Part shown: positions 28,156-46,432 of the stretch, piece by piece
Layout of the letters: the number at the start of each line of letters is the position of its first letter
Numbering within the stretch: position 1 is the first letter of the stretch
The notes under the pieces: model-generated
The model's input: the letters and a program-made list of their open reading frames with translations, nothing else
Told to the model about the DNA's origin: nothing
Databases searched by the model: none
Translations under genes and position numbers: made by a program
Assembly: GCA_964449845.1 (NCBI GenBank)
Contig: CAYVES010000004.1
Location: forward strand, 1 to 50,068
DNA: 50,068 bases
Source of the DNA: an uncultured Dehalococcoidia bacterium
GTDB taxonomy: Bacteria; Chloroflexota; Dehalococcoidia; SZUA-161
Reading direction: 5' to 3'

Positions 28156-28160
28156 GGAAA

Positions 28161-28526: not shown

Positions 28527-28551
28527 GAATGGACACCGGGGGAGGACAGGG

Positions 28552-29565: not shown

Positions 29566-29570
29566 CTGAA

Positions 29571-30323: not shown

Positions 30324-30324
30324 G

Positions 30325-30561
30325 ATGCCCATTCTAACAACCTACCTAATCTTCAAGGGTCTTCGAGGCATTGCCGGGAAGATTCGCGATATGGCTGAGG
30401 AGGAATACTACGGGGAGGACAGGATAAAGCAGCAGCTTCTGGAACTCCAGATGAGGTTGGAGATGGATGAGCTAACCGAGGAGGAGTATCTGAAAGCGGA
30501 AGCTGCCCTGATGGGAAGGTTGGAGGAAGGTCGCCAACGCGGCGTTCAAGGAGCAGTATGA
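30325..30561 (+). CDS. gvpG: Gas vesicle protein GvpG
   Basis: 78 aa: GIAGKIRDMAEEEYYGEDRIKQQLLELQMRLEMDELTEEEYLKAEAALMGRLEE, the characteristic GvpG helix pattern. Confidence 0.88.
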   Translation: MPILTTYLIFKGLRGIAGKIRDMAEEEYYGEDRIKQQLLELQMRLEMDELTEEEYLKAEAALMGRLEEGRQRGVQGAV

Positions 30562-32525
30562 TGGCCGCCTTTCTGGCCAACCCATACCTCAAGCTCATAA
30601 TCTTCGGCGGCAAGGGAGGGAGCGGCAAGACAACCTCGGCTGCGGCTGCTGCCCTCCATTTCCGTAAGCTCGACCCCGAAAAGAGGATACTGGTTATGTC
30701 CACCGACCCCGCCCACTCCCTCGGCGACAGCTTCGACATCGCTATCGGCAACAGGGTTACCCCCATAAAGGAGACCGTCTGGGGGCTGGAAGTAGACTCT
30801 AATGAGCTGTTTGAGGAATACAAAGCCAAGCACGGAGACGCGATGAAGAAGATAGCCGACCGGGGGACCTATTTTGACCAGGATGATATCGAGGACTTCT
30901 TCACCAAGACCCTCCCTGGTTTGGATGAGGTTATGGCTGTCATTCGCATCGCCGACCTGCTTAAAGCCGGGGAATATGACCTGATTATTCTGGATACCGC
31001 CCCCACCGGGCACACCCTGGTCCTCCTTTCCCTGCCTGAGGAGATGGAGAAATGGATTCATCTCATGGATATGCTCATGCAGAAACATCGCTATATGATG
31101 AGAAGGCTGGTCGGCAGATACAAAAGGGACGAGTGTGACGAGTTCATCGACAGCCAGCAAAAGGATATCAGCAGGGTGAGACAGCTCCTCAGCGATGCCA
31201 CAGCAAGCGAGTTTGTTCCGGTTACCATCCCAGAGCCGATGAGCATCGCCGAAACAGAAAGAGCCGTCAAGGCTTTGAAGGAGCACAACATTGCGGTCAA
31301 CAGCATCATCGTCAACCGGGTTATCGAGGAGCAGCGGGAGTGTTCCTTCTGCTCGGTGAGGTGGGCGGAGAAGGAAAAGTATGTGCGGGAGATTGAGCAG
31401 AAGTTCGCTCATTACAATCTGGTCAAGATGCCCCTCTTCCCCTACCAGATCCGGGGCGAGAGCTTGACCGAGTATGCCCAGGTACTCTTCGGGGAGAGAG
31501 AATATGCCCCTCCCCCCAGGGCGGAGGTCTTGCCCCAAGCCCCTCCCCTGCCCAAAGGGGGGTTCTCCGATATTCTGGAGAAGGAGCTTAGCTTCCTCAT
31601 CTTCGGGGGCAAGGGAGGGGTGGGCAAGACCTCAATTGCCGCCGCCAGCGCCCTCCATTTAGCCCGACATAAGCCGGATAGGAAGGTCCTCGCCTTCTCC
31701 ACCGACTCCGCCCATGCCCTCTCCGACAGCTTCGAGCAGCGTATTGGCAACCAAATCACCCCGATTTCGGGTATCGATAATCTCTACGCCCTGGAGATTG
31801 ATGGCACCCAGATGCTGGAGGACTTCAAGCAGGAGTATCGAGATGACATAGATGAAGCCTTTCAGAGGTTTCTCGGCACCCACATGGACATGAAGTTTGA
31901 CCGGGAGGTTCTTAAAGAGTTCTTGGCTGTCTCTCCCCCGGGCCTTGATGAGCTCATGTCTTTGCAAGAGATTACGGGTCTCATGAAGGAAGGAGACTAC
32001 AGCCTCTTTGTCCTCGACTCAGCAGCCTCGGGGCACCTGATTCGTTTTCTGGAACTCCCCCATCTGATGAGGGAGTGGCTGAAGAGCGTCTTCAGGCTGC
32101 TCATCAAGTATAGGGGGATGGTGAAGCTGAACAGGGCTACGGAGCGCCTTCTGAGCCTATCCCGGGATTTGAGAAAGATATTGGAGGTTCTCTCCGATCC
32201 CCGAGGAACGGAGTTTGTGATGATCACCATCCCTGAGGAGATGGGGGTGGCGGAGATGGAGGACCTGTCAGAATCTTTAGCCAACCTTAGAATCCCCTGC
32301 TCTCATGTAGTCATTAACATGATAATCCCTCCCACCGACTGTGGTTTCTGTGCTGCCAAGAGAAAAGAGCAGCAGGGCTATATCCAGGAAATCGAGGCAA
32401 AACTGCCTCATCACACCATCGTTCCCATACCTTTACTCCCCCATGATATCAGGGGGGTAGAGCACTTGAGCGAACTTGCCGAGATTATGTACGGGAAGGC
32501 GATGGTGAGCGCTAAGAGATCTTAG
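30558..32525 (+). CDS. Tandem (pseudo-dimeric) ArsA/Get3/TRC40-family ATPase
   Basis: 655 aa. Two P-loops (GGKGGSGKTT, GGKGGVGKTS), two STD(P/S)AH(S/A)L motifs and two switch motifs (LDTAPTGHTL, LDSAASGHLI). Each half carries a CxxC followed by a Get3-like helix (CSFCSVRWAEKEKYVREIE, CGFCAAKRKEQQGYIQEIE). The first half has a Met-rich segment, MEKWIHLMDMLMQKHRYMMRRL. ATGA overlap with the gvpG stop. Confidence 0.88.
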   Translation: MMAAFLANPYLKLIIFGGKGGSGKTTSAAAAALHFRKLDPEKRILVMSTDPAHSLGDSFDIAIGNRVTPIKETVWGLEVDSNELFEEYKAKHGDAMKKIADRGTYFDQDDIEDFFTKTLPGLDEVMAVIRIADLLKAGEYDLIILDTAPTGHTLVLLSLPEEMEKWIHLMDMLMQKHRYMMRRLVGRYKRDECDEFIDSQQKDISRVRQLLSDATASEFVPVTIPEPMSIAETERAVKALKEHNIAVNSIIVNRVIEEQRECSFCSVRWAEKEKYVREIEQKFAHYNLVKMPLFPYQIRGESLTEYAQVLFGEREYAPPPRAEVLPQAPPLPKGGFSDILEKELSFLIFGGKGGVGKTSIAAASALHLARHKPDRKVLAFSTDSAHALSDSFEQRIGNQITPISGIDNLYALEIDGTQMLEDFKQEYRDDIDEAFQRFLGTHMDMKFDREVLKEFLAVSPPGLDELMSLQEITGLMKEGDYSLFVLDSAASGHLIRFLELPHLMREWLKSVFRLLIKYRGMVKLNRATERLLSLSRDLRKILEVLSDPRGTEFVMITIPEEMGVAEMEDLSESLANLRIPCSHVVINMIIPPTDCGFCAAKRKEQQGYIQEIEAKLPHHTIVPIPLLPHDIRGVEHLSELAEIMYGKAMVSAKRS

Positions 32526-32551
32526 GCACCTCGGGGCAAAGGGGGTGGGAA

Positions 32552-32926
32552 ATGGCGCTAACGGCGGAAAAGGACTCAGGCGGAACCCTGGCTGATGTCA
32601 TCGACCGGGTTCTGGACAAAGGGCTGGTAATTAACGCCGACATCACCGTGTCTCTGGCTGGGGTGGAGCTATTGGGCATTAAGATAAGGGCAGCCCTGGC
32701 TTCTTTTGAGACGGCAGCCAAGTATGGCCTGGAGTTTCCCTCGGGGACAAATTATGAGACCGCTGCCTGGCAGGAGGCTACAGTTGCCAAAGAGGAATGT
32801 CCCCAGTGTGAGAAGAGGGTGCACCTGGATGAACTCCTCAACGAGGGGTGCCCGTGGTGCGGCTGGGTCAGCGCCAAGGCCAAGGCAATCCGCGCCAAGG
32901 CAACTCCAGAGATGGAAGCCCGCTAA
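32552..32926 (+). CDS. gvpJ: GvpA/GvpJ-family protein with C-terminal zinc ribbon
   Basis: TLADVIDRVLDKGLVINADITVSLAGVELLGIKIRAALASFETAAKYG is the GvpA/J core. CPQCEKRVHLDELLNEGCPWCGW follows. Confidence 0.85.
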   Translation: MALTAEKDSGGTLADVIDRVLDKGLVINADITVSLAGVELLGIKIRAALASFETAAKYGLEFPSGTNYETAAWQEATVAKEECPQCEKRVHLDELLNEGCPWCGWVSAKAKAIRAKATPEMEAR

Positions 32927-32938
32927 GTTAGGAGCAGG

Positions 32939-33280
32939 ATGCTTTTTGAACCGACAATCCTGAAGGAAATCCATAAAGAGGCCAAGCGAGAACAAAAGAG
33001 GTCGATGGAGAAAGAAAAGACCTCTGCCTACTGGGTGAGGTGCCCCGCCTGTGGAAGGAAGGTGGCAAAAAGGCAGATTCTGACCCAAGGCTGCTGGGTT
33101 TGCGGTTGGAAGGGAACTCAGAAGGAACTCGAGCTTGCCAGATCAAAGAGAGCCAACGGGCAGAAGACCAAGACTGCCGCTGAGACGAGTTATAAGACCA
33201 GGTGTCCGGGGTGTGGTAGGCCGGTGATTACACAAGAGTTGAGAGAGAAAGGGTGCTATATCTGCGGCTGGAAGGGTTAA
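32939..33280 (+). CDS. Double zinc-ribbon protein (two copies of the CPxCG...GCxxCGW module)
   Basis: 113 aa. CPACGRKVAKRQILTQGCWVCGWKG and CPGCGRPVITQELREKGCYICGWKG. Confidence 0.7.
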   Translation: MLFEPTILKEIHKEAKREQKRSMEKEKTSAYWVRCPACGRKVAKRQILTQGCWVCGWKGTQKELELARSKRANGQKTKTAAETSYKTRCPGCGRPVITQELREKGCYICGWKG

Positions 33281-33284
33281 TAGG

Positions 33285-34061
33285 ATGATCAGAAGCTCAT
33301 GGCCCAAGGGCCACAACTCTCATGCCGAAGAAGCAGTTCGGAAGCTGACCCCTTTCATGCCGCAAAACCTCAGACTCGATATACTCGCCTCCTTGTGGGA
33401 AGAATACGGGGACGAGGGGCAACTGGCCAGGGAAGTCGGCTGTAAGCCCGCCCTGATGGACAAATGGCTGAGGGCAGGGGAACCACCGAGCGACAAATAC
33501 ACGCCGCAAATCCTTTTCCTCGCCCTGCAACGCTCTTCCAGGGTAAGGGAAATACTGCGGGCGGAGGTACTGGAGCAAATCGAGGACATCTTCGCTGAGA
33601 TCGATGTTTTTCATGAAGAGAAAACCGACGCGGACCTGGGTAGGGTTCTGGATATTGTGGATGAGAAGAGCCGGCAGATACTGTGGTATCTATGGTGGGG
33701 CAGGCATGCCGAGATTGGCGAACTGGTTGAGCTAACGAAGGCAGACTCGGATATGGACATCCTGTCTCGAATAAGGGACGTCATAAACCCCGCTGCTCGA
33801 CTTGCTCTGGGTAGGGAGATAGTGAAGTTCGAAAGCTCCAGGATCGACCCGGTAACCGGGGAGAGGGTCCTCTCTAGCTGGTGGCTGGAGGAGGGCTCAC
33901 TATTTGGGAGAAGGAGAGCGCCCCTGGTGGATGTCTTTGAGGAGGATGGGCATGTAGCCATAATTGCCCAGCTACCTGCCTCACTGGAGTTAGCCAGTGA
34001 GGCGCAGGTAGTGAGCAAGGATGGTGTCTTGAGGATCAGGGTGGAGAAGATCAAGGGTTAA
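33285..34061 (+). CDS. Protein with C-terminal alpha-crystallin (Hsp20)-like segment; possible HTH near the N-terminus
   Basis: 258 aa. C-terminal PLVDVFEEDGHVAIIAQLPASLELASEAQVVSKDGVLRIRVEKI parallels the ACD start of 34139 and 40805. N-terminal GQLAREVGCKPALMDKWLRAGEPP is HTH-like. Confidence 0.6.
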   Translation: MIRSSWPKGHNSHAEEAVRKLTPFMPQNLRLDILASLWEEYGDEGQLAREVGCKPALMDKWLRAGEPPSDKYTPQILFLALQRSSRVREILRAEVLEQIEDIFAEIDVFHEEKTDADLGRVLDIVDEKSRQILWYLWWGRHAEIGELVELTKADSDMDILSRIRDVINPAARLALGREIVKFESSRIDPVTGERVLSSWWLEEGSLFGRRRAPLVDVFEEDGHVAIIAQLPASLELASEAQVVSKDGVLRIRVEKIKG

Positions 34062-34138
34062 GAGGTAGAGGATGTAGGGGCAGGTTCCCCAAACCTGCCC
34101 GGGAATATGGAGGGCACAAATGGAGGAAGGCAAGCATC

Positions 34139-34813
34139 ATGGCTGAGAAGAAGGAACGGGAAGACAAGATAAGGGAGCTTGAGAAAAAGATCGAGAGGCT
34201 GGAGGAACAACTGGAAAGGCGCAGGCGAGGTGGGGCGGCCGGCAGCGTGCTCCGTGGACTGGGCGATGTTATACCCGGGCTGGGCAGGATGCTCGAGGGG
34301 CTGGAGGATTCGGAGGCTTTCCAGGAAAGGCTGGACGCCATCAACAAGGAGGTTGATAAGAGGCTCAGGGAAACACCGCTTGAGAGGGTGGAAGGAGGAG
34401 GTAGTGATATCGGGATTGCCAAAGGAAGAATACCTAGAAGGGGCTCTATCCCTAATGTGGCGAAAGGTTTCTCAATAAGGAGCTTGGCCCCGGAGAAACC
34501 CGCCTTTGAAGTGAAGGGAGAGAAGCCCCGGCCCAAAAGGCAGAGAGCGGCAGAACCCCGGCCTAGCATAGAGAGAGAGGTCCTGGTGGACGTCTTCGAA
34601 GAGGATAATCACCTGAAGATAATCGCCGAGATCCCGGGAGTGCAAGAAGGGGACATATTGGTCGAGTCTAAGGGAAATGCCGTGCTTATATCCGTTGATA
34701 CCCCTCAGCGCAAGTATCACAAAGAGGTGGCATTGCCCTGCCCGGTTAAGGGGGGACCCAAGACATCTTACAAAAACGGCATCCTGGAAATCGAACTGGA
34801 GAAAGAGGGCTGA
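34139..34813 (+). CDS. Small heat-shock (alpha-crystallin domain) protein with N-terminal coiled coil
   Basis: 224 aa. VLVDVFEEDNHLKIIAEIPGVQEGDILVESKGNAVLISVDTPQRKYHKEVALPCPVKGGPKTSYKNGILEIELEKE is a typical Hsp20 ACD. Confidence 0.8.
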   Translation: MAEKKEREDKIRELEKKIERLEEQLERRRRGGAAGSVLRGLGDVIPGLGRMLEGLEDSEAFQERLDAINKEVDKRLRETPLERVEGGGSDIGIAKGRIPRRGSIPNVAKGFSIRSLAPEKPAFEVKGEKPRPKRQRAAEPRPSIEREVLVDVFEEDNHLKIIAEIPGVQEGDILVESKGNAVLISVDTPQRKYHKEVALPCPVKGGPKTSYKNGILEIELEKEG

Positions 34814-34815
34814 GC

Positions 34816-35142
34816 ATGCCACTTGATATCGATGAGGGCAATCTGAAGCATGGTGTGTTGGGACTGGTCATTGCGCTGGTGGAGATAATCAGGGATACCC
34901 TCAGGATCGAAGCCTTCCGGAGAATGGACGGCGGAAGCCTAGCAGATGAGGAATGTGAGCGGCTGGGAGAAGCACTGCTCGACCTGGATATGGCTATCGA
35001 GGAGATAAAAGAGGAGCAGGGCATCACCGAGGCAGTTCAGCAGGTGAGGGATGGCCTGGATGACATCGCGAGGGAAGTGGTTGACAGAATGGCAAACCCG
35101 GTGAGATGGGAGGAGGAAGCCGAAAGGCAAGGGGTGTGCTAG
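34816..35142 (+). CDS. gvpK: Gas vesicle protein GvpK
   Basis: 108 aa: GVLGLVIALVEIIRDTLRIEAFRRMDGGSLADEECERLGEALLDLDMAIEEI, the characteristic GvpK block. Confidence 0.9.
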   Translation: MPLDIDEGNLKHGVLGLVIALVEIIRDTLRIEAFRRMDGGSLADEECERLGEALLDLDMAIEEIKEEQGITEAVQQVRDGLDDIAREVVDRMANPVRWEEEAERQGVC

Positions 35143-36219
35143 ATGGAAAAGGATCTGAGAGCAAGAAAAGCAATAGAGCAGCTGGTGAGGCAAGAGGTAC
35201 AGAGAATAGCCTCTGAAACCAAGGACCTGTTGAGGGAGATGGTGAGAGCCACCCTACTGCCCGAGCTCAGGGCAGCTATTCAAGATTCTATCTCCGAGGT
35301 GGTGCAGGAGGCGTTGAGTGAGGAGATACTACCAGTCCGTGAAGCCGATATATTTGAGGAAGTTTCAGGGGTTGAAGCTGCTTTCCCGGAAGAGGAAGTA
35401 GGGGAGATGCCGGATGCCGAGGGAGAGCCGGCCTTGGAGGAGGCCAGGGGCACCAAAAATGGGAGCGGCAGGTATGCATATTGCGTCGCCGATTCCGGGG
35501 AAATGGTCAACCTGGGACAGATAGGAATTGAAAACAGTGAAGTCTACACTATTCCCTACAACGGCTTGTGCGCTGTCGTCCATAACTGCTCCACAGAGCC
35601 CTATAAGTCAGAGGATGAGGAAGTGGTCAAGGGCTGGGTGCAGATCCACCAGAAGGTCCTCGATGTGGCTATGGAAAGGTTTGCCACCGTGCTTCCCCTC
35701 GGCTTCGACACGATAATAAAAAGCGAAGATGAAGTCGAGCCCGATCAGGTGGTGAAGGACTGGCTTAAGGATGATTTCGAGAATCTCAGGGAGAAGATGG
35801 ACCGCGTCAGGGGAAATCAGGAGTTCGGCATCCAGGTATTCTATGATCCCAAGGTGATGGGGGAAGTGATTGCCCGGGAGAGCGAGGAGATTCAGAAACT
35901 GCAAGTGGAGATGGCGTCTCAGAAGCCGGGGATGGCCTATATGTATAAGCAGAAGGTGGAGAAGGCGGTGAAAGAGGAAATGGAGAGGAGGGCAGAACAG
36001 AGCTTTAAGGATCTTTACCAGGCAATCAGAAATCAGGTTGATGACATCAAGGTGGAGAAGGTCAAAAGAGACAGGGATAAGACGATGCTTATGAATCTAT
36101 CCTGCCTGGTATTAAAGGAGAAGGTGGAGGACCTGGGCAATGTACTGGAGGGGATTGACAACATGGATGGCTTCTCAGTCCGCTTCACCGGGCCCTGGGC
36201 TTCTCATAGCTTTGTCTAG
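35143..36219 (+). CDS. gvpL: Gas vesicle protein GvpL/GvpF family with an acidic N-terminal extension
   Basis: 358 aa. GRYAYCVADSGEMVNLGQIGIENSEVYTIPYNGLCAVVHN...VLPLGFDTII...FTGPWA. The ATG directly abuts the gvpK stop. Confidence 0.85.
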   Translation: MEKDLRARKAIEQLVRQEVQRIASETKDLLREMVRATLLPELRAAIQDSISEVVQEALSEEILPVREADIFEEVSGVEAAFPEEEVGEMPDAEGEPALEEARGTKNGSGRYAYCVADSGEMVNLGQIGIENSEVYTIPYNGLCAVVHNCSTEPYKSEDEEVVKGWVQIHQKVLDVAMERFATVLPLGFDTIIKSEDEVEPDQVVKDWLKDDFENLREKMDRVRGNQEFGIQVFYDPKVMGEVIARESEEIQKLQVEMASQKPGMAYMYKQKVEKAVKEEMERRAEQSFKDLYQAIRNQVDDIKVEKVKRDRDKTMLMNLSCLVLKEKVEDLGNVLEGIDNMDGFSVRFTGPWASHSFV

Positions 36220-36220
36220 G

Positions 36221-36392
36221 GTGACAAGGGTTCAGGGCCTCGGAATGGCACATTCCAGGTGTCATTGCGAGGAGTGATAGCGACGCGGCACTCTAGGGCG
36301 TGGTAGGGAGGGATAGAACGATGAGATTGCTTCGCTTCGCTCGCAATGACCAGGGGGTGTGGGGCTCAGAATGACAAAGGAGAAGGGGCAAG
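36221..36392. repeat. REP/MITE-like GC-rich palindromic element, copy A
   Basis: ...ggcacattccaggtgtCATTGCGAGgagtgatagcgacgcggca...gggagggatagaacgatgagattgcttcgcttcgCTCGCAATGaccag... Inverted CATTGCGAG/CTCGCAATG arms are present. About 170 nt align to 36813-36995. Confidence 0.8.
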
Positions 36393-36393
36393 G

Positions 36394-36741
36394 ATGAGAG
36401 AGTTCCTGCGAGAGGGAGAACAGACTATCATGTCCACTCCGGGAGCCATTGATATCGGCACCCTTGACGCCCTGTGGAGAATGGGGAATCTCCACCTCAC
36501 CGATAAACGGGTGTTTTTTGAGCGCCAGGGGAAAATCCAGTTTGCCTCCTTCCTCGAGGATGTGGTGGATGTCAGGCTGGAGATGAGGAAATGGATACTG
36601 CAGCATATCAGGCAGCTTTGCATATCCTACCGAACCACACCCGATGGCCGTGTCCGGGTGGCATATGTCGCCGTCAGGTCGCCTGTGGGCTGGCAGAAGG
36701 CAATCAAGGATAGGATGACTTTCGCCTTGATAGGGACCTAG
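36394..36741 (+). CDS. Stand-alone PH/GRAM-like domain protein
   Basis: 115 aa from the ATG at 36394; upstream codons of the track ORF lie in the REP element. MGNLHLTDKRVFFERQGKIQFASFLEDVVDV resembles the two PH/GRAM-like modules of 37020-38132. Confidence 0.6.
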   Translation: MREFLREGEQTIMSTPGAIDIGTLDALWRMGNLHLTDKRVFFERQGKIQFASFLEDVVDVRLEMRKWILQHIRQLCISYRTTPDGRVRVAYVAVRSPVGWQKAIKDRMTFALIGT

Positions 36742-36812
36742 CACCCTTATCACCCTGAGCGAAGCGAAGGGTCCAGGGCTTTTGGAGATTCTTCGGTCGC
36801 TTCGCTCCCTCA

Positions 36813-36995
36813 GAATGACAAGGGTTGAGGGCCTTGGAATGACAGAGGCATTCCAGGTGCCATTGCGAGGAGCGATAGCGACGTGGCAATCCCGGGGGTG
36901 GCAGGGAGGGATAGAACGAAGAGATTGCTTCGCTCGCAATGACGAGAGGTTGAGGGTCTCAGGATGACAGAAGGCGAAGGGCTCAGAGTGACAGC
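36813..36995. repeat. REP/MITE-like GC-rich palindromic element, copy B
   Basis: ...ggcattccaggtgcCATTGCGAGgagcgatagcgacgtggcaatcc...gggagggatagaacgaagagattgcttcgCTCGCAATGacgag... Extra related arms (gagcgaagcgaaggg / cttcggtcgcttcgctccctcagaatgac) lie at 36755-36815. Confidence 0.8.
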
Positions 36996-37019
36996 AAGGT
37001 GAACCATTGGGGATGAAAA

Positions 37020-38132
37020 GTGGGAATGCAACCTACGGCGGCAACGGAATGTGGTGTAACCGATCTCTTAGAGAGGATTCTAGACAAGGGGCTGGTAATC
37101 CATGCCGACCTCATAGTCTCCCTGGCAGGGGTTCCTCTTGTCGGGGTTACTCTAAAGGCAGCCATAGCCGGGATGGAGACAATGCTGAAGTATGGCATGT
37201 TGACCGATTGGGATGAAAAGACCCGCGACTGGGCTCGAACGGAGCGGGAGGAATCTCGAAAAGCGAGCGGGGTCTTGAAAGACGGTGAAGAGGTTCTGAT
37301 CAGGATGTTCGGCTCCCACTGGTACAGCCGGGGCATCTACCGCAACTGGAGGCCGGGGCATCTCTACGTCACCGATAGGAGGCTTCTACTGTGGAGACCC
37401 TATCCCGGCGAGGTATTAACGGAGGTTCACTACGAGCTAATAAAAGGAATGGCTGTGGAGAGAAGGATAAATGTCGCCAAGAAGGAAACGGATTACCTTT
37501 ATATATTGCTCAAGGATGGCGAGGTGGTTCAACTCCATCCCACCGATGCTTCGGTGGTAAGAGAGGCTATTGAAAACAGGATGCAAACGCTGGGACTGCA
37601 ACTGGAGAGTTACCCAGCTATCCCGCCCGTTGATGAGGGGGCAGCCAGGTTCTTGACCCCTGGCGAGCAAGTTACCCACTGCGGCAGGATGTGGCACCTC
37701 GTGACCCAGCCCTCCCCGGGCGGAATCACCAGCGAGAAGTGGAAGCCGGGACACCTGTATCTAACCAACGAGAGGCTGTACTGGTATCACGACTTCGACG
37801 GCAAGGTGGACTGGGAAGCCCCCCGTGACAGCCTGGTTCATGCCACTGCTCAGTTAAAGAATCTCGGGGGTATGCTGAAGGAGAAGCAGGTCCTCAGTGT
37901 GCTGCACAAGACCGGGTCAGGTAACAGGGTAGCATGCTTCTCTGGCGTGCCGGTGGAGATGAAGGACTGGGAGGATGCCCTAGTAGATGTCATCAGGCAG
38001 CGCAGCGAACCCATGCCTGAGGACTGGGAACAGTGCCCCCAGTGCGGGGAGAAAGCGCCCCGAGAGAGGCTGGTAAAAGATGGCTGCCCGGTGTGCGGCT
38101 GGGTAAGCCCCAGGCTGACGCGAAGAGTCTAG
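37020..38132 (+). CDS. GvpA/GvpJ-family domain fused to two PH/GRAM-like domains and a C-terminal zinc ribbon
   Basis: 370 aa. VTDLLERILDKGLVIHADLIVSLAGVPLVGVTLKAAIAGMETMLKYGM is the GvpA-family core. WRPGHLYVTDRRLLLW and WKPGHLYLTNERLYWY mark two PH/GRAM-like modules. CPQCGEKAPRERLVKDGCPVCGW closes it. The start may be the ATG at 37026. Confidence 0.83.
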   Translation: MGMQPTAATECGVTDLLERILDKGLVIHADLIVSLAGVPLVGVTLKAAIAGMETMLKYGMLTDWDEKTRDWARTEREESRKASGVLKDGEEVLIRMFGSHWYSRGIYRNWRPGHLYVTDRRLLLWRPYPGEVLTEVHYELIKGMAVERRINVAKKETDYLYILLKDGEVVQLHPTDASVVREAIENRMQTLGLQLESYPAIPPVDEGAARFLTPGEQVTHCGRMWHLVTQPSPGGITSEKWKPGHLYLTNERLYWYHDFDGKVDWEAPRDSLVHATAQLKNLGGMLKEKQVLSVLHKTGSGNRVACFSGVPVEMKDWEDALVDVIRQRSEPMPEDWEQCPQCGEKAPRERLVKDGCPVCGWVSPRLTRRV

Positions 38133-38142
38133 AGGAAAGGAG

Positions 38143-38421
38143 GTGAGCAAAATGTCTCTGACGACGGTTCAGGTAGTAGACCGGGCTAAGAAGCAGCTAA
38201 GCGAGCTCATAGAGAGGAAGCCATCAGGTGTGACTGCGGTTCACAAGGATGATGGGGGGTGGCATGTCTCGCTGGAGATGCTGGAGAAGAAGTCTATCCC
38301 CGATGGCATGGATTTGCTTGCCGAGTATGAGGTCGTGCTTGATGATGACGGGAATATACTGAAGTTTGACCGGGGTGACCTGCGCACCCGCAGCGAGGCG
38401 ACAAAACATGAAGAGGAATAG
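38143..38421 (+). CDS. gvpO: Gas vesicle protein GvpO
   Basis: 92 aa: VVDRAKKQLSELIERKPSGVTAVHKDDGGWHVSLEMLEKKSIPDGMDLLAEYEVVLDDDGNILKFDRGDLRTR matches the GvpO pattern (W.V.vE..E...iP...D.la.YEv.lD..G.l..f.R). RBS AAAGGAGG. Confidence 0.8.
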   Translation: MSKMSLTTVQVVDRAKKQLSELIERKPSGVTAVHKDDGGWHVSLEMLEKKSIPDGMDLLAEYEVVLDDDGNILKFDRGDLRTRSEATKHEEE

Positions 38422-38757: not shown

Positions 38758-40503
38758 ATGGCTAGAGTCATAGGGATTGATTTGGGTACTACCAACTCGG
38801 TAGCTGCCTTTATAGAGAATCGCAAGCCAAAGGTCATCCCCAATGCCGAGGGTGGTCGGCTGACCCCTTCTGTAGTGGCGTTGACCGCAGATGGGAGGCG
38901 GCTGGTGGGGCAACTGGCAAAGAGGCAGGCCGTAGCCAACCCCGAGAAAACCGTTGTCTCCATGAAGAGGCGAATGGGCTCTGACTTCAGGGTGAGGCTT
39001 GGCCGAAAGGAGTACACGCCTCAAGAGGTCTCAAGCCTTATCTTGGGTAAGATCAAAGCCGATGTCGAAAGCTACCTGGTGGAGAGGGTGGAAAAGGCGG
39101 TGATCACCGTTCCTGCCTATTTCAATGACTCTCAGCGTCAAGCCACCAAAGATGCTGGGACCATCGCTGGGTTGGATGTACTCAGGATTATTAACGAACC
39201 CACGGCCGCTGCCTTGGCCTATGGGTTGGATAAGCAGGACGCCCATAATATCCTGGTCTGGGACCTTGGCGGCGGCACGTTCGATGTCTCCATCCTGGAG
39301 CTGGGCAGGGGAATGTTTGAGGTCAAGGCGGTAAGTGGCAACACCTGGCTGGGGGGGGATGACTGGGACCAGCGTATCGTGGATTATCTGGCTGGCGAGT
39401 TCCAGAGACAGCACGGCATCGACTTGCGAGAAGACAGGATAGCCCTGCAGCGGCTGAGGGAGGCCGTGGAGAAAGCCAAGATCGAGCTTTCAAACAGCCA
39501 GGTTGCCTCCATCAAACTGACGTTTATCCTCAGTAACAACCATGATGCCGAACATCTGGATATGACACTGACCAGGGAAAGGTTCGAGGAGCTAACAGAG
39601 GATTTGCTTCAGAAGATGATTGGGCCCACCAAGCAAGCTTTGGCCGATGCCAAACTCGAGCCTGAAGATATCGATAGGGTAGTTCTGGTAGGCGGAGCTA
39701 CCAGGATGACGGCGGTGCAGCAGCTATGCCGAGCGCTCTTGCGTAAGGAGCCTTACAAGGACATCGATCCCGATGAGGTGGTGGCTATGGGCGCCGCCAT
39801 TCAAGCCGGGATGCTAAGCGGTGAACTGGAAAAGGTAACATTGCTCGATGTTACCCCCCTCTCTCTGGGCATTGAGACCAGGGGCGGGATTTTTGCCAGG
39901 ATTATTGAAAGGAATGCCAAAATTCCTACCTCCACAAGCCAGGTATTTTCCACGGCTTTCGACAACCAGCCTGAGGTGGATATTCATGTGCTGCAGGGAG
40001 AGAGGGAGATGGCTTGTTACAACATGAGCCTGGGCAGATTTCAGCTCACCGATATCCCCCTTGCTCCCCGAGGAGTGCCCCGCGTCGAGGTCGTCTTTAG
40101 TATCGACGTTAACGGCATTCTCCAGGTGTCTGCCACAGACCTATATACCGAAAATGAAGCCAGATTAAGGATTCAGTCCTCCAGGCTATCACCTGAGGAC
40201 ATCGGACGGATGATCGAAGAAGCTAAGGTCTATGCTGAGGAGGACAAGAGGCGGCGCGAAGAGGTAGAGATAGGTATTAGAGCCGACAACCTCATCTATG
40301 CTGCTGAAAAGATGGTGGAGCAGACAGGGGATAGATTGGATGACACCCAGCTTGCGGAAACAGAGGCAAAGGTATTAGCGGTGAAGTCCGCTCTAGCCAG
40401 TGGAGATACTGAGGAGATCAGGTTAAGAACTGAAGACCTACAAGAAGTGGTCCGGGAGTTATACACGGAGAAGGAGGAGCTTACCAGTGCAAGGGCGACT
40501 TGA
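38758..40503 (+). CDS. Hsp70 (DnaK-family) chaperone, compact 581-aa form
   Basis: [72 protein letters not shown] and a full beta-sandwich SBD ([13 protein letters not shown]...[19 protein letters not shown]). The helical lid is short. Confidence 0.95.
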
Positions 40504-40758: not shown

Positions 40759-40787
40759 TTGACATGTGTTTAATCATCTGTTATAAT
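40759..40787 (+). promoter_or_regulatory. Consensus sigma70-type promoter upstream of the HTH-Hsp20 gene
   Basis: TTGACA (40759-40764), a 17-nt spacer, then TATAAT (40782-40787). It lies 18 nt upstream of the ATG at 40805, so the leader is very short or absent. Confidence 0.62.
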
Positions 40788-40804: not shown

Positions 40805-41500
40805 ATGGAGAATAGACGTATCAGGGGATTGCGATTAGAGCTTGGTCTGTCTCAGGAGAGGTTTGCTCGGCTCGTTGGCGTCTCACTGCAAACGGTGCGA
40901 CGGTGGGAGGAAGGCTTAACCAGACCTCTGCCTGTCTTGAGTCTCAAGCTGGAGGAGCTACAAAGAAATTCCGGAGGTGTTGGAATGGGTGAGGAGGAAA
41001 AGAAGAAAGTGGAAGGAACTGTGGATATTGGTTTCGGTGGCCTGTTCAAGGGACTCGGCAGCCTGTTTGACCTCGTCTCCAGGATGGCTGAGGAGGGGAA
41101 AGATGAATATACCCGCACCGGGGAGATTACGGGCCTGGGCGACAAGGCTAAGGGAGTATATGGCTTTAGCGTAAAGATGGGGCTGGGAGGAAAGCCGACT
41201 ATAGAACAGTTCGGCAATATCAAGGCAACCGAGAGGGGGCCGGTGGTGGCGGAGGTCAGGGAGCCTATAGTTGATGTCTTCGATGAGGGGGAGAGATTGG
41301 TAGTGATCGCTGAACTTCCTGGTGTGGACGAGGACGACATCCACCTTGAGGTGAAAGATGACATTATCGATCTGGCTGCGGAAGCAAAGGACAGGAAGTA
41401 CAGTAAGGAGATTCTACTTCCCTCGGCAGTGGATGCCGATTCTATGCAATCTACCTACAAGAACGGGATTCTGGAGATAACGTTCAAGAAGAAGCAATAA
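40805..41500 (+). CDS. XRE-type HTH domain fused to an alpha-crystallin (Hsp20) domain
   Basis: N-terminal IRGLRLELGLSQERFARLVGVSLQTVRRWEEG is an HTH_3 pattern. C-terminal PIVDVFDEGERLVVIAELPGVDEDDIHLEVKDDIIDLAAEAKDRKYSKEILLPSAVDADSMQSTYKNGILEITFKK is an ACD. Confidence 0.83.
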   Translation: MENRRIRGLRLELGLSQERFARLVGVSLQTVRRWEEGLTRPLPVLSLKLEELQRNSGGVGMGEEEKKKVEGTVDIGFGGLFKGLGSLFDLVSRMAEEGKDEYTRTGEITGLGDKAKGVYGFSVKMGLGGKPTIEQFGNIKATERGPVVAEVREPIVDVFDEGERLVVIAELPGVDEDDIHLEVKDDIIDLAAEAKDRKYSKEILLPSAVDADSMQSTYKNGILEITFKKKQ

Positions 41501-41517
41501 ACCCTTCACTGGGGGGA

Positions 41518-41640
41518 AGCGTTCAGCCGCTAGCTATCAATTCGTAGGGTGGGTGCAGCAGGGCGGAACCCACCAACCAGCGTTCAGCCGTCAGCTCTGG
41601 AAGGTGGGTTGCGTTTCGCTCCACCCACTTTACTATGCTG
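41518..41640 (+). repeat. Two tandem 61-nt units, each ending in a GGTGGGT...ACCCAC(C) hairpin (REP-like)
   Basis: agcgttcagccgctagct...GGTGGGTgcagcagggcggaACCCACC and agcgttcagccgtcagct...GGTGGGTtgcgtttcgctccACCCAC. An inverted gctgaac follows at 41651. Confidence 0.75.
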
Positions 41641-41682
41641 AGTGCTGATCGCTGAACACCTGCGAATCAGGAGGCAACAAAG

Positions 41683-43827
41683 ATGGCGAAGGTGGAAACT
41701 AACGCCGTAACCCTTAGGGTTTCGGAGGCGCTGGCTAAGGACGTGGGTCGAGGAATAGCCAGGATCGACCCTAAAGATATGGTGGAGACAGGCGCTGAGG
41801 TTGGAGATATCGTTCAGATTGTGGGTAAGAGACCCACTGTTGCCAGACTTATGCCCACCTACATGGAGGACCGGGGCAAGGACAGCATTCAAATCGATGG
41901 CATTACGCGAGAGAACGCCCAGATTGGACTGGGTGAGAAGGTACAAATTCAAAAGGTTGAACACAAGACCGCCAATGCCATAGTCCTCGCCCCAATAGCC
42001 CCATCATCTGCCTTCGCTCGCGAAAAGGATACCGGCTACATCGGGAGGCTGCTTGAGGGAATGGCTGCCACCTCTGGAGACAAGGTAAGGGTCACCCTTT
42101 TTGGCACTCGCTATCAGGAATTCTCTGTGGTGGATACCAACCCCAAGGGAGTCGTTGTTGTCCATCCCACCACCCGGGTAAAGATGAAAGGTGAAAGGGT
42201 TACCGAGAGAGAAGGGGTTGGAGTTACCTACGAGGACATCGGTGGATTGCACAAGGAGATTCAGAAGATAAGAGAGATGATCGAGCTTCCCCTGAAATAC
42301 CCTGAGGTGTTTGACAGGCTGGGGATTGAAGCCCCCAAGGGGGTATTGCTCCATGGCCCTCCGGGATGCGGCAAGACTCTGATCGCCCGAGCGGTAGCCA
42401 ATGAGACCGACGCTGGCTTTTTCCATGTAAGTGGTCCCGAGGTCATCCATAAGTTTTATGGAGAGAGTGAAGCACACCTGCGGGCTTTGTTTGAGAAGGC
42501 AGGTGAACAGGCGCCGGCCATAATCTTTTTGGATGAGATTGACGCTATAGCCTCCAAAAGGGAGGAAATCAGGGGCGACCAGCAGGTGGAAAGAAGGGTT
42601 GTTGCCCAGCTTCTGGCGTTGATGGATGGCCTGAGATCAAGGGGGCAGGTGATCGTCATCGGGGCAACCAATATACCCAATGTGCTTGACCCGGCACTGC
42701 GGAGACCGGGCAGGTTTGATCGGGAGATTTCAATAAGCATCCCCGACAAGAAGGGAAGGCTGGAGATACTCCACATCCATACTAGAGGAATGCCTTTGGC
42801 TTCGGATGTCGACCTGGAAAAGCTGGCTGAAATCACCCATGGCTTTGTTGGTGCCGACCTGGAGGCGCTCTCTAGAGAGGCGGCGATGATAACCCTGAGG
42901 AAGATCATGCCCAAGATCGAGTTTGAGACCGACTATATTCCCTATGAACTGCTCCTGGAACTGGAAGTTACCATGGATGACTTCATGGAGGCATTAAAGG
43001 AGGTGGAGCCTTCAGCCATCAGGGAGGTTTTCACTGAGATTCCCGATGTAAAGTGGAGCGATGTCGGTGGTCTTGAGGAGGCGAAACGAGTGCTCAGGGA
43101 GACCATCGAGTGGCCCCTCAGCTATCCCGAGGTATTCGGCAAAGCCAATACCAGTCCTCCCAAGGGGATACTGCTTACCGGAGCCCCAGGGACGGGTAAG
43201 ACGCTGCTGGCTAAGGCTGTGGCTAACGAGAGTGGAGTGAACTTCATCTCGGTAAAGGGCCCGGCCTTGCTCACAAAATGGGTGGGGGAGTCGGAGAAAG
43301 GGATCAGGGAGGTGTTCAAGAAAGCCAAACAGGCCAGCCCCTGCATCATGTTCTTCGATGAGATAGACGCCATCGCCCCCACCAGAGGGGTTAGTGCTGA
43401 TTCCCACGTCACTGAGCGAGTGATCAGCCAGTTCCTCACTGAACTCGATGGAATAGAGGAGCTTAAGGGGGTGATGGTTCTGGCTGCTACCAACAGGCCG
43501 GATATTATCGACCCAGCTCTGCTTAGAGCTGGCAGATTCGACTTCCAGTTGGAGCTGCCAATGCCTGATGAGGAGACAAGGCTGGAGATATTCAAGGTTC
43601 ATACCAGGGGCAAACCCCTGGCTGACGATGTTGACCTCAAGTCCCTCGCCAAGGCAACTCAAGGCGTGGCAGGCTCTGATATAGAGGCTATCTCAAGGAG
43701 AGCTTCGATGCTGGCGATAAGGGAATTCATAAACCGGGAGGAAATGGACCTCGACAAACTCAAGATCGAGGCCCGGCATTTCAGGGAGGCACTTGAGACA
43801 ACAAGGATGGCCAAAGACCAGCGATGA
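41683..43827 (+). CDS. Cdc48/VCP-like double-ring AAA+ ATPase (N domain + D1 + D2)
   Basis: 714 aa. N-terminal [23 protein letters not shown]...GDIVQIVG is a Cdc48-N pattern. Two Walker A motifs ([22 protein letters not shown]), two Walker B motifs ([20 protein letters not shown]) and two second-region-of-homology blocks ([26 protein letters not shown]). Confidence 0.93.
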
Positions 43828-44504
43828 GAAAACTCCTTTATGTCCCTATTATCCACACGGAGTCTGAACTGGGAAGCGTAGCTTCCGCTATCGAGAGCAG
43901 AAGCGCCGCTCTGGTTGGAGAGGAGAAATGGGCCAGACACAAGGAAGTAGTGGCAAAGTTCTGGGAGAACCTGGCTCACCACTTCGATTCTCTTGATGCT
44001 GCCAATCTCAAGATATATCAAGATGGTCTCCTCGCAGATGGCGAACTGGGCAGGAGGGTCGTCGAGGAGGCAGCAAAACGCGGCAGCAGGAATCACCAAA
44101 TCATCCTCAACCTTGTGGAGAAGGGCGCTGAGCTTATGAAGACCGAGGATACAGATCTCATCAAGGAGGAGTATAAACATATTATCCAGCTTGCTCAGTC
44201 CAAATCGGTTGTTGGGAAAAGCGTTGCCTTCACCAAGTATAAACTGCGCAAAGGTTCGCTGCTGAAGGAAAGGGATAAATTTGTAGCTGAAACGATCGAT
44301 CAAACGCTGAAGGAAGAGGAGACTGGCGTTCTCTTTATGGGGAGTCATCATGATGTTCTCCCTTATCTCCCGGAAGACATTGTAGTAGAGCAGGTCAAGG
44401 ACAGGGAAAGGATTAACCTTTACTTCAAGTATCTTATTTCAAGGATAAGTAGGAGAAGATTTGAGCAGTTGGCAGAATACGTTGCCTCCCTAACACAAAC
44501 CTAA
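43824..44504 (+). CDS. Hypothetical protein, start overlapping the stop of the Cdc48-like ATPase
   Basis: 226 aa with an ATGA overlap to the upstream stop. No recognisable domain. Confidence 0.6.
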
Positions 44505-44624
44505 GAACGGTGCCAGTTTCCAACTGAACAGTAGTCCATACTGTTAGATCTCTAACAGAGAGGCTGGGTACCTTCGGCAAACACAGCTCTTTGATAAACC
44601 CGAAAGCTATGATTGATACTTGCT

Positions 44625-44774
44625 CTACCCCTTCCCTATTCGGAAAACATTGGTGCCACAATTCGGGCACTCACCTTGGGTTGCTGGCTTCTTGTTCTTC
44701 ATGGTGATCTGTTTCGGGTTCTTGATCTCCACCTTTTTCCTGCACTTCATACAGAGTGTCGAGGTAGATGGCAT
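44625..44774 (-). CDS. Small zinc-ribbon protein (DUF5679-like)
   Basis: Reverse-strand 49-aa ORF: MPSTSTLCMKCRKKVEIKNPKQITMKNKKPATQGECPNCGTNVFRIGKG. I recall the C.KC+K...K.....TMKN..PA..G.CP.CGT..FRIGK pattern for this family of ~50-aa proteins. It is below the ORF-track cut-off, and the RBS spacing is poor. Confidence 0.55.
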   Translation of the reverse strand: MPSTSTLCMKCRKKVEIKNPKQITMKNKKPATQGECPNCGTNVFRIGKG

Positions 44775-44934
44775 TCACCTAGCGATCAACTACACGATAC
44801 CACTGGTGGCGGGCCCATACGAGGGAGAATTAACCGAGGCAGCGGCAGTTCTGCCTATCATACAGAATGGCTCACCATTGTGGACGAAAGGTAAAACCAA
44901 GACGTTCGAGAAGACGTTTGCCCTGGTTTACTGA
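44761..44934 (+). pseudogene. Second, shorter 3' remnant (~57 codons) of a large serine recombinase gene
   Basis: Encodes VEVDGIHLAINYTIPLVAGPYEGELTEAAAVLPIIQNGSPLWTKGKTKTFEKTFALVY*, paralleling LPEVAIDYTIPLPLEDGLTSTSEVLRINKNGSPNRTKGKTFEKTFALAY* at 12521-12664. Confidence 0.6.
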
Positions 44935-45058
44935 CGAAAGGGACTCGCCTTAGGTTAGCTTAACACGAAGATATCAAGAGCTTTTAGGCTAGTGTTTGCC
45001 CTCTTGCCGATTGTCCAACAACATACTATATCGTTGAGCCAATTGCACCAAATGGACT
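44761..45058 (+). repeat. Right copy of the recombinase-end direct repeat
   Basis: See 12521-12788. Homology ends at ...ccaaatggac in both copies. Confidence 0.8.
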
Positions 45059-45063
45059 ACTGT

Positions 45064-45245
45064 TCAGTCATGGGCAGAGATGACCCCTTCCCGCTCGAAA
45101 AGGGGGATACGCACAGCCAGACAATACTTGAATAGCAAGGGGCTCCAGAAGGACTTTTGTAGTGTGGGGAGGATATGATGGGCAGCACGTGCCACTGACT
45201 TAGCTCAGCGATCGTTTTTTCTCGTGCCTTCTCTGGTGTCATTTA
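45064..45245 (+). pseudogene. Possible decayed 3' fragment of an alpha/beta-hydrolase gene
   Basis: The frame reads ...SVMGRDDPFPLEKGDTHSQTILE*QGAPEGLL*CGEDMMG..., resembling the xVIxGxxDxxxPxxxxxxLAxxIPGAxLxVxxxxGH region. It carries in-frame stops. Weak evidence. Confidence 0.3.
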
Positions 45246-45443
45246 GCAACTGATGAGTGCACAGAAGCAAAGCCGCTTTGGAAGGGGCCGGAGATAACCG
45301 CCAGCCCCAGAGGCCGCCCAAGCCGGGGCGGCATGGGGTTGAAAAGCGCCTCCCTAAGGCTCTCCTCTCTTCTTCTCGCCTAGCCCAGCATAAATGCTCC
45401 CTTCAATTAGGCATATTGGCCTTGCTTTCTACTGTTCAGCGCA

Positions 45444-45518
45444 GGCACAAATGCTCCCATCATGGATCATTGAACAGGTGTTTTTGGCGACCAAGAACAG
45501 GCATTACGGCGGAAGTCA
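45444..45518 (+). promoter_or_regulatory. Conserved ~75-nt upstream element, copy 1
   Basis: GGCACAAATGCT, about 40 nt, then AACAGGCATTACGGCGGAAGTCA. The same two blocks with the same spacing recur at 46259-46332. Confidence 0.4.
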
Positions 45519-45592
45519 ATATTGCCAGCAGCGTGCTAAGCTGATAGTGGACGGGGGGAAACCCCGAGATCAACCGAAAGGAGGCACAAAAG

Positions 45593-45778
45593 ATGGAGTG
45601 GCAAGTAGTTCTAGCGCTGGTGTTGGGAATACCCGCAGTACTCCTCCCGGTGGCGTTCGTGTGGTACCTGAACATCAGCGGCCTGTATCAGGTCGTTCGT
45701 GATGCACGCCAACGGCAAAAAAGGCGAATCGCTCATGAGAGCAGAGCAGCAGCCGAGAAGCAGACCGCTCTGACATAG
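45593..45778 (+). CDS. Small single-TM protein (paralog 1)
   Basis: 61 aa: MEWQVVLALVLGIPAVLLPVAFVWYLNISGLYQVVRDARQRQKRR... RBS GAAAGGAGG. Confidence 0.6.
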   Translation: MEWQVVLALVLGIPAVLLPVAFVWYLNISGLYQVVRDARQRQKRRIAHESRAAAEKQTALT

Positions 45779-45824
45779 AGTGACCCAGCGAAAAAGAACA
45801 AGATAAGAAGAAAGGAGGTGCGAG

Positions 45825-45989
45825 ATGGAGTGGCAAGTAGTTCTGGTCCTGGTGTTGGGACTACCAGTCATCCTCTTCCCGGCGGCATATGTATGGTATC
45901 TGAACGTCGGAGGCATTTATGCAGCCGTTAGAGAAAAGAGGAAGGCTGCCCGTGGGGTGGCGGTGGAGAAGCACGCTATTGCAAGGTAG
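45825..45989 (+). CDS. Small single-TM protein (paralog 2)
   Basis: 54 aa: MEWQVVLVLVLGLPVILFPAAYVWYLNVGGIYAAVREKRKAARGVAVEKHAIAR. RBS GAAAGGAGG. Below the ORF-track cut-off. Confidence 0.55.
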   Translation: MEWQVVLVLVLGLPVILFPAAYVWYLNVGGIYAAVREKRKAARGVAVEKHAIAR

Positions 45990-46058
45990 GCGATGTAGAG
46001 ACGGGCAGCTAAGGGAAGGAGGAAGTGAAATAGGAGTAGCAGGTACGATTGACGGATA

Positions 46059-46112
46059 GGAAAGCCTTGTTCCGCTGTCATCAAGGTTGAAGCAGGTCAA
46101 GGCTTTCCTTTT
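46059..46112 (+). terminator. Intrinsic-terminator-like hairpin plus T-tract
   Basis: GGAAAGCCTTG-n28-CAAGGCTTTCC-TTTT. The loop contains a second CAAGG, which could pair alternatively with the 5' CCTTG. Confidence 0.6.
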
Positions 46113-46258
46113 GAGTTACATCGCCGCATAGCACCCGAGCTACTGATGCCCACCCAATGATATCGCTCCCTGAGTCCCTAGGACAAGGCACCCAGCCTGG
46201 CCCGCTGTTTCTCGGCGTCACTATCTTACAGCACCCCATTTCTCAACCCCTTCCGCAT

Positions 46259-46332
46259 TGGCACAAATGCTTAGCGATGGCTAACCCTATACGAGTTTTC
46301 GGCAAGTAGAAACAGGCATTACGGCGGAAGTC
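46259..46332 (+). promoter_or_regulatory. Conserved ~75-nt upstream element, copy 2
   Basis: GGCACAAATGCT, about 39 nt, then AACAGGCATTACGGCGGAAGTCA. It lies about 100 nt upstream of the histidine kinase start. Confidence 0.4.
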
Positions 46333-46432
46333 AGTTTTACGAGTAGTATGGTAATGTCAAAGTGGAACCAAGGAGCTGGCAAGCACATAGACTGGCTTTA
46401 TCAAGGGAGGGTATGCCGAGAGGGGTTTAGCT

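Follow-up and report, generated by a model that had tools for sequence, protein, structure and literature searches.

A Cdc48-type ATPase and the uncharacterised P226 protein family as parts of a chaperone-rich gas vesicle gene cluster

The window, a stretch of 50,068 nucleotides (nt) from an uncultured Dehalococcoidia bacterium (contig CAYVES010000004.1), contains a gas vesicle (gvp) gene cluster whose distal end encodes a small heat shock protein (sHsp) fused to a helix-turn-helix (HTH) domain (HTH-Hsp20), a Cdc48-type AAA+ ATPase (CDC48), and a protein of 226 amino acids (aa), here called P226. These three genes (40805-44504) seem to form a sub-operon served by a conserved promoter of its own, and sHsp, CDC48, and P226 are recurrent parts of a chaperone-rich type of gvp cluster in anaerobic bacteria. 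It is proposed, with a probability of about one half, that sHsp and CDC48, possibly joined by P226, work with the Hsp70, the J-domain-carrying GvpF, and the ArsA of the cluster as a proteostasis and extraction system for shell proteins. A gvp cluster with a dedicated Cdc48-type motor is new, as is the undescribed gvp-associated protein family P226; full-text literature searches found no paper linking Cdc48, VCP, or VAT to gas vesicles or gvp clusters. The window sequence is present in salt-marsh and marine-sediment metagenomes, and its nearest relative is an uncultured Dehalococcoidia metagenome-assembled genome (MAG), with 92% identity for P226 and 97% for CDC48.

The Cdc48-type ATPase, its sub-operon, and their conservation

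An earlier reading of the window from its letters alone (the sequence-only reading) had described a 714-aa protein with a Cdc48-type N domain and two AAA modules, and this was borne out by both Pfam and NCBIfam. Against the NCBIfam model TIGR01243 ("CDC48 family AAA ATPase"), the protein scored 980.4 bits over aa 9-706, above the cut-off of 802.65 bits. Pfam placed CDC48_N (PF02359) at aa 10-93 (E 1.1e-25) and CDC48_2 (PF02933) at aa 117-171 (E 2.6e-8), together with two AAA and two AAA_lid_3 domains, so that the N domain, consisting of a double-psi barrel and a beta-clam, spans aa 10-171. The pore-1 loops are aromatic, and the Walker A and B motifs and Arg fingers are intact, in both rings: D1 carries Walker A at 225-232, the pore loop KFYGESE at 257-263, Walker B at 280-287, and Arg fingers at 337-346, and the corresponding elements of D2 lie at 500-507, 532-538 (KWVGESE), 555-562, and 611-620. 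The best solved relative was Thermoplasma VAT (5G4F), which aligned over the full length with an E value of 3.7e-222. VAT and Cdc48 are unfoldases that act by threading. No HbYX proteasome-docking motif was present at the C terminus of CDC48, which ends in TTRMAKDQR, and the cluster showed no genes for a 20S proteasome. From its sequence, CDC48 looks like a complete VAT-like unfoldase, and since the docking tail is missing, it most likely works as a stand-alone unfoldase or segregase.

The gene for HTH-Hsp20 is preceded by a perfect sigma-70-type consensus (Table 1). The exact consensus was also found at the equivalent position in five related loci (L005, L040, L049, L087, and L088), and in L024 a perfect consensus lies directly before CDC48. 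This recurrence at equivalent sites is the reason why HTH-Hsp20, CDC48, and P226 are regarded as a sub-operon with a promoter of its own. The HTH-Hsp20 protein scored 167 bits against the NCBIfam model "archaeal heat shock protein Hsp20" (cut-off, 140 bits), and the HTH domain on the sHsp suggests, speculatively, that the sub-operon is under feedback control by client load.

The spacer between HTH-Hsp20 and CDC48 had been read as a repetitive extragenic palindromic (REP)-like repeat. A long hairpin (dG -83.8 kcal/mol, z -5.1) and two 18-nt direct repeats are indeed present, but dispersed copies were not found: within the 50-kb window the motifs are confined to this spacer, and a comparison with 167 loci located them at a single further place, the orthologous site of the closest relative, L005. 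There, the homologous stem carries an apical insertion of about 90 nt. The hairpin could be an element of mRNA processing or stability. The sole Rfam match between 40400 and 46600, "mir-761" on this hairpin, was sub-threshold and was rejected as spurious.

Synteny was surveyed in about 110 loci related to the window with three independent anchors, namely P226, CDC48, and the fusion of a GvpA-like domain with a PH-type region (GvpA-PH). The P226 anchor yielded 121 relatives in species-representative genomes; 80 of their loci were compared, and gene content was determined by tblastn with 15 window proteins. The CDC48 anchor comprised homologues of 77 to 83% identity from Coprothermobacterota, Thermodesulfovibrionales, and one further MAG. 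The GvpA-PH anchor provided an independent metagenome sample, in which counts were limited to the 31 loci of at least 9 kb.

Nearly all P226-anchored bacterial loci with enough flanking sequence were gvp clusters with CDC48, which was missing only from L038 and possibly from L018. The CDC48 homologues of 77 to 83% identity all lie in gvp clusters and are each followed by an unannotated open reading frame (ORF) of 217 to 231 aa; this level of identity across phyla points to horizontal transfer of CDC48. The P226 homologues P0002 and P0065 are likewise found in gvp clusters with the CDC48-P226 arrangement. In the GvpA-PH-anchored sample, CDC48 was present in 15/31 loci and P226 in 9/31, and all nine loci with P226 also carried CDC48 (one-sided Fisher test, approximately 2.5e-4, calculated by hand from the table 9/6/0/16, with contig truncation as a confounder). 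At least four clusters of this sample carry CDC48 without P226 (L106, L110, L137, and L158).

Three arrangements were distinguished. In Dehalococcoidia and other Chloroflexota the order is Hsp70, (HTH-)Hsp20, CDC48, P226, with gaps of 0 to 24 nt between the last two genes. In Desulfobacteraceae, Syntrophales, Actinomycetota, and Nitrospinae it is gvpN, gvpF, hsp20, CDC48, gvpF/L(J), P226, gvpF, gvpO, where (J) marks a J-domain; in clusters of the Desulfobacteraceae type, CDC48 is thus interleaved between gvp genes. In Methanothrix and other Methanosarcinales, P226 adjoins the GvpA-PH gene in divergent orientation, and the full gvp cluster to which that gene belongs lacks CDC48, L062 being the sole exception. 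Immediate neighbours were counted wherever a full-length cluster CDC48 gene had 900 bp or more of sequence before it, which was the case for 44 genes. Hsp20 lies directly upstream in 36 of these, while the gene directly downstream is P226 in 19, a GvpF/L-J gene in another 19, and GvpF/L in 3. In about half of the clusters a gvpF/L gene intervenes between CDC48 and P226, and the tightest pair is sHsp-CDC48 rather than CDC48-P226.

CDC48 and P226 therefore genuinely belong to one class of gvp clusters, though as accessory genes that can be separated. The expectation that the two would track gvp clusters as a pair held in so far as close bacterial homologues are found in such clusters, but each gene can occur without the other and both are absent from some related clusters. 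A pair that is common without gvp genes, which the sequence-only reading had named as counterevidence, was not seen for close CDC48 homologues or for nearly all bacterial P226. In archaea the P226 family is not exclusively linked to gvp genes, because six loci of Methanothrix and Methanosarcina (L055, L056, L057, L059, L068, and L071) have a P226-family gene with no gvp gene within 6.5 to 10 kb. In L068, this gene follows one for a fusion of acetyl-CoA hydrolase and GNAT.

The P226 family

The ORF of P226 begins in an ATGA overlap with the stop codon of CDC48, and the coordinates, lengths, and strand given for the two genes in the sequence-only reading were correct. The ORF had also been called free of recognisable motifs. 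This stands for Pfam and NCBIfam, in which P226 had no match above threshold, but not for the family as a whole, which has a strongly conserved set of motifs. Its 363 close homologues are without exception unnamed or "hypothetical," and a profile search of 1.84 billion representatives retrieved 1153 relatives (representatives at 50% identity), 194 of them below 1e-30. P226 is thus an uncharacterised, gvp-associated family that is absent from Pfam and NCBIfam. When 63 diverse members were scored, H11, W47, E108, R150, D151, G173, and H176 were invariant, and the conserved motifs were HxE (8-13), YQDG (65-68), TE (107-108), RD (150-151), and GxxH (173-176).

The AlphaFold2 model of P226 is an alpha/beta fold with five strands (pLDDT, a per-residue confidence score, 88; predicted template modelling score [pTM], 0.84). 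H11, Q66/D67, T107/E108, and G173-H176 each come directly after a strand in the sequence of this model, and the alternating order of strands and helices suggests a parallel sheet. If the predicted sheet is indeed parallel, the conserved residues would lie along one of its edges, the classic position of an active site. A Foldseek comparison of the model with the PDB gave no meaningful match (best E value, 0.2; TM score at most 0.28), and profile searches of the PDB with the P226 family profiles gave none. By Pfam, P226 contains no domain of known Cdc48 cofactors (UBX, PUB, PUL, or carriers of SHP, VIM, or VBM motifs), even at E values up to 10. As judged by eye, the family consensus does not keep the stretches of P226 in the window that resemble VIM and VBM motifs (RRR and AA-R).

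Residues 190-226 (window 44391-44501) form an extra C-terminal helix pair of about 35 aa with the conserved sequence FEQLAEYL. This extension is found in most bacterial members and is lacking in the archaeal forms of about 190 aa and in some bacterial ones. Whether it tracks a cluster-encoded CDC48 was considered, with no clean fit, as L076, L078, L141, and L144 combine CDC48 with a short P226. In L049, from a MAG labelled Dehalococcoides mccartyi, the P226 homologue (10001-10667) is split over two frames and lies 814 nt from CDC48, which points to a probable pseudogene or an error of assembly.

The only similarity that recurred across the family was to TraB/PrgY/GumN (PF01963) and, through ChaN, to the TIKI superfamily to which both belong. 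Sub-threshold matches to PF01963 were obtained with 28 of the 63 members (best member, 23.5 bits; gathering cut-off, 26.8 bits) and to ChaN with 3, and in this comparison no other family was matched by more than one member. Pfam matches to DUF3991 in three P226 members, and other single-member matches, were treated as noise. The register of the PF01963 matches was consistent in 8 of 10 members examined, with P226 residues ~117-132 to ~170-186 corresponding to positions ~177-203 to ~243-247 of the 263 in the profile. A Methanothrix homologue matched PF01963 with an E value of 1.5e-4; the window P226 itself did not match it. A comparison profile was also built from six bona fide TraB/GumN proteins, in which GxIH, E, E, R, and GxxH are invariant. 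Using hhalign, P226 was aligned to this profile with a P value of 0.0022 and a probability of just 12.8% over 41 columns, R150 and G173xxH176 falling on the invariant R and GxxH. With E. coli YbaP alone in place of the profile, hhalign gave no match.

In TIKI-superfamily enzymes, among which are endopeptidases, a parallel sheet of five strands carries a site of two His and two Glu plus a basic residue that is conserved (PMC6254334), and a five-strand core is also predicted for P226. TraB/PrgY/GumN proteins share with P226 the order of the conserved residues: a His after the first strand, an acidic residue after the middle strands, an Arg, and GxxH. P226 differs in being smaller (190-226 aa, compared with ~260-290), in having no Gly in its first motif (PIIH rather than GSIH), in having YQDG as its second motif in place of VEAD, and in that its model had no Foldseek match to ChaN, Bcr135, HopBA1, or RRSP. 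On its sequence features, P226 looks enzyme-like rather than adaptor-like, and it is regarded as a probable, very remote, minimal TIKI/TraB-like hydrolase, a candidate rather than an established member of that family.

A proposed shell-protein proteostasis system and competing explanations

Left without the chaperoning of assembly factors, GvpA aggregates and is a source of proteotoxic stress (PMC12848028). The reading given about even odds here joins the observed gene identities, intact motifs, and conserved neighbourhood, promoter, and residues to substrates, a direction of action (assembly quality control or recycling), and an enzymatic activity of P226 that we infer. In this mechanism the sHsp would capture and hold non-native or mis-assembled shell subunits of the GvpA family, and CDC48 would extract and unfold subunits from aggregates, aberrant assemblies, or collapsed shells. 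Hsp70, brought in via the J-domain on GvpF/L, and the ArsA/Get3-type ATPase would then return the subunits to productive assembly. P226 is seen as an independent accessory protein of the cluster and most probably a small hydrolase, which would modify or trim a Gvp protein or chains released by CDC48. The gene content suggests that cells with this type of cluster carry dedicated quality control for very aggregation-prone vesicle shell proteins.

The sequence-only reading had offered a candidate machine for extraction, recycling, or quality control of shell subunits, with P226 possibly its adaptor. In the version weighed here, CDC48 is dedicated to disassembly or recycling and draws GvpA out of finished or collapsed walls, with P226 as the adaptor for its substrates. 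In favour of this, CDC48 looks competent as an unfoldase, it appears translationally coupled to P226 in the window and in clusters of the Dehalococcoidia/Chloroflexota type, and bacterial P226 is almost always accompanied by it. The adaptor role is nevertheless contradicted by the separability of the two genes and by the catalytic-looking residues of P226. A gvpF/L gene stands between them in about half of the clusters, Methanothrix gvp clusters have P226 beside them and no CDC48, and several CDC48-bearing clusters have no P226; moreover, the protein has no UBX, PUB, or other Cdc48-cofactor domain, its VIM/VBM-like stretches are not conserved, and its invariant His, Glu, Arg, and GxxH residues are hydrolase-like. 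No feature separates disassembly from quality control during assembly, and the company of sHsp, Hsp70, J-domain-GvpF/L, and ArsA fits the latter at least as well as disassembly or recycling. As a whole, this explanation is considered unlikely, although recycling or disassembly by CDC48 is possible in itself. The same co-occurrence in bacteria could instead reflect a two-part system for degradation or processing, a route to regulated turnover and not to chaperoning: CDC48 would unfold a Gvp protein or a regulator, which P226 would then cut. The TIKI/TraB-like His/Glu/Arg/GxxH signature of P226 would suit such a role, given that the TIKI superfamily includes endopeptidases (PMC6254334), and another hydrolase partner for CDC48 would make sense because CDC48 has no HbYX tail and no 20S genes were seen in the cluster. 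P226, however, is a small single domain and not a chambered peptidase, its homology to TIKI enzymes is sub-threshold, the two genes are separable, and the Hsp20/Hsp70 context favours refolding over destruction, so that this, too, is judged improbable.

It can also be argued that Hsp20-CDC48 is a general stress-response cassette of archaeal origin that hitch-hikes with transferred gvp islands and has no role specific to gas vesicles. The Hsp20 matches the archaeal Hsp20 model and CDC48 comes closest to the VAT of archaea; a separate promoter serves the module, which lies at the cluster edge in the window, and some related clusters do without it. Against this, the module is kept in dozens of gvp clusters with at least six phylum-level labels, it is often embedded between gvp genes rather than at the edge, and all close CDC48 homologues examined lie in gvp clusters. 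Because the module is retained inside clusters across phyla, a hitch-hiking cassette appears very unlikely.

Several points weigh against the proteostasis reading itself. The complete gvp clusters L152, L154, and L157 carry neither CDC48 nor P226, and about one-third of the long-flanked Methanothrix homologues of P226 lack gvp genes within 6 to 10 kb. To our knowledge, CDC48 and P226 are also absent from the classical gvp clusters of cyanobacteria, Bacillus, Serratia, and haloarchaea. As both are missing from some gvp clusters, they are not required for vesicle formation as such. The link of P226 to TraB and the TIKI enzymes is weak: every Pfam match is below the gathering score, the hhalign probability is as low as stated above and a single TraB sequence went unmatched, and no solved TIKI-fold structure is among the 50 Foldseek PDB matches listed for P226. 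Taxonomic labels of the MAGs may be wrong where contigs are short, and the check for RNA runs or expression found none with the window sequence.

Archaea have housekeeping Cdc48 paralogues. The occurrence of P226 without CDC48 in Methanothrix, and of nearly always both in bacteria, is consistent with archaea using their housekeeping Cdc48 and bacteria importing the motor with the island. A wider generalisation is offered tentatively, as a possible but doubtful one: that widespread bacterial gvp clusters carry their own proteostasis machine, made up of an sHsp and a Cdc48/VAT probably of archaeal origin, Hsp70, J-domain-GvpF, and Get3/ArsA; that this Cdc48 would be the first ATP-driven motor for both extraction and unfolding of shell proteins; and that P226 would be a new family of minimal TIKI-like, Gvp-processing hydrolases depending on a Cdc48-type ATPase, cluster-encoded in bacteria and supplied by the housekeeping paralogues in Methanothrix.

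The question bears on how the extremely hydrophobic GvpA stays soluble, enters the growing shell, and is removed after mis-assembly or collapse. GvpA aggregation is the main obstacle to the use of gas vesicles as acoustic reporters in other hosts (PMC12848028). If a co-evolved set of sHsp, Cdc48, Hsp70, J-domain-GvpF, and ArsA does exist, it would offer testable candidates for these steps and parts for better heterologous expression. The P226 family gains a first biological context and a testable enzymatic hypothesis, and the survey provides a record of canonical Cdc48 genes that travel between bacteria on gvp islands.

The surrounding cluster and comparison with known systems

The cluster upstream of CDC48, on the same strand, is an unusually chaperone-rich gvp cluster (Table 1). 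CDC48 and P226 had been described as co-oriented with the gvp block (23235-38421 and onwards), and this is so. The chaperone set of the window comprises Hsp70, a GvpF/L-DnaJ fusion, a DnaJ zinc-finger protein, two Hsp20-like genes, and a tandem ArsA.

Table 1. Features of the gvp cluster and its distal sub-operon (window coordinates)
Feature	Position	Strand	Remarks
OmpR-type response regulator	22191-22952	+	
GvpA	23235-23441	+	
GvpN	25612-26637	+	TIGR02640, 356 bits
DnaJ zinc-finger protein	28110-28526	+	CXXCXGXG-type fingers only
GvpF/L fused to C-terminal J-domain	28552-29565	+	DnaJ Pfam 7.2e-15
GvpF/L	29571-30323	+	
Tandem ArsA/Get3 ATPase	30558-32525	+	
GvpA-like (J/M-type) protein	32552-32926	+	
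Hsp20-like protein	34139-34813	+	
GvpK	34816-35142	+	
GvpL/F	35143-36219	+	
GvpA-PH	37020-38132	+	370 aa; GvpA-like domain, weak PH-type similarity (E 0.006), C-terminal zinc ribbon
GvpO	38143-38421	+	
DnaK-type Hsp70	38758-40503	+	
Sigma-70-type promoter-like site	40759-40787	+	TTGACA-17-TATAAT; 12/12 consensus matches, TG extension; 18 nt before HTH-Hsp20 start codon
HTH-Hsp20	40805-41500	+	HTH_3 (XRE-type)-Hsp20 alpha-crystallin fusion; Pfam HTH_3 2.3e-10, HSP20 5.5e-9
Intercistronic spacer	41501-41682	+	182 nt; long hairpin; 18-nt direct repeats 41518-41535, 41579-41596
CDC48	41683-43827	+	CDC48/VAT-family double-ring AAA+ ATPase, 714 aa; ATG start after AGGAGG
P226	43824-44504	+	226 aa; ATG overlaps CDC48 TGA as ATGA

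The GvpF/L-J-domain fusion recurs beside CDC48 in many clusters and represents a direct link between Hsp70 and a Gvp assembly factor. The GvpA-PH gene is kept in bacteria and in Methanothrix, where it is the immediate divergent neighbour of P226, and its homologues have faint precomputed Pfam matches to GRAM and Vps36. A small ORF (26495-26821) that overlaps the end of gvpN has weak similarity to CDC48_N (E 0.0028) and to a MazE/AbrB-type barrel (E 0.0015); it could encode a regulator resembling AbrB, or the match could be due to chance. In L003, the cluster Hsp70 (5535-7270) was called as two ORFs of 341 and 225 aa.

Downstream of P226, about 1.9 kb (44505-46432) contain short ORFs only and are followed by a histidine kinase and response regulator pair. 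The one ORF tested there (44620-44934) had no family match, and the stretch had no Rfam match. Its repeats are a perfect inverted pair of 17 nt (44523-44539 and 45052-45068) separated by 512 nt, a direct pair of 112 nt with 76% identity (45591-45702 and 45823-45934), and another direct pair of 72 nt (45480-45551 and 46295-46366).

Among known systems, VAT of Thermoplasma acidophilum and the archaeal Cdc48 proteins have the same domain order as CDC48 (double-psi barrel/beta-clam N domain, D1, D2). The window protein differs in being encoded in a bacterial gas vesicle cluster, in lacking an HbYX-type tail for 20S docking, and in having an sHsp gene upstream and P226 or gvpF/L downstream. GvpN, the known AAA+ protein of gvp clusters, is likewise an ATPase encoded there, but it is a single-module protein of the MoxR/AAA_5 type without an N domain or threading pore loops, so that CDC48 is an additional and mechanistically different motor. 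That gvp clusters are accompanied by ArsA and Hsp20 genes was already known (Castillo and Saier 2010, PMC2963123). The ArsA/Get3 homologues described in that work, like the tandem ArsA of the window, provide a precedent for non-classical ATPases, and for Hsp20, as conserved accessory members; the work makes no mention of a Cdc48-type ATPase or of the P226 family, both of which are present here. By analogy only, the window set resembles the IbpA/B-DnaK/DnaJ-ClpB network, since here, too, a double-ring AAA+ threading motor is encoded alongside an sHsp holdase and an Hsp70 that has a J-domain partner. The set in the window is cluster-encoded and presumably client-specific, with a Cdc48-type motor in the place of ClpB and a J-domain carried on a GvpF/L protein (28552-29565).

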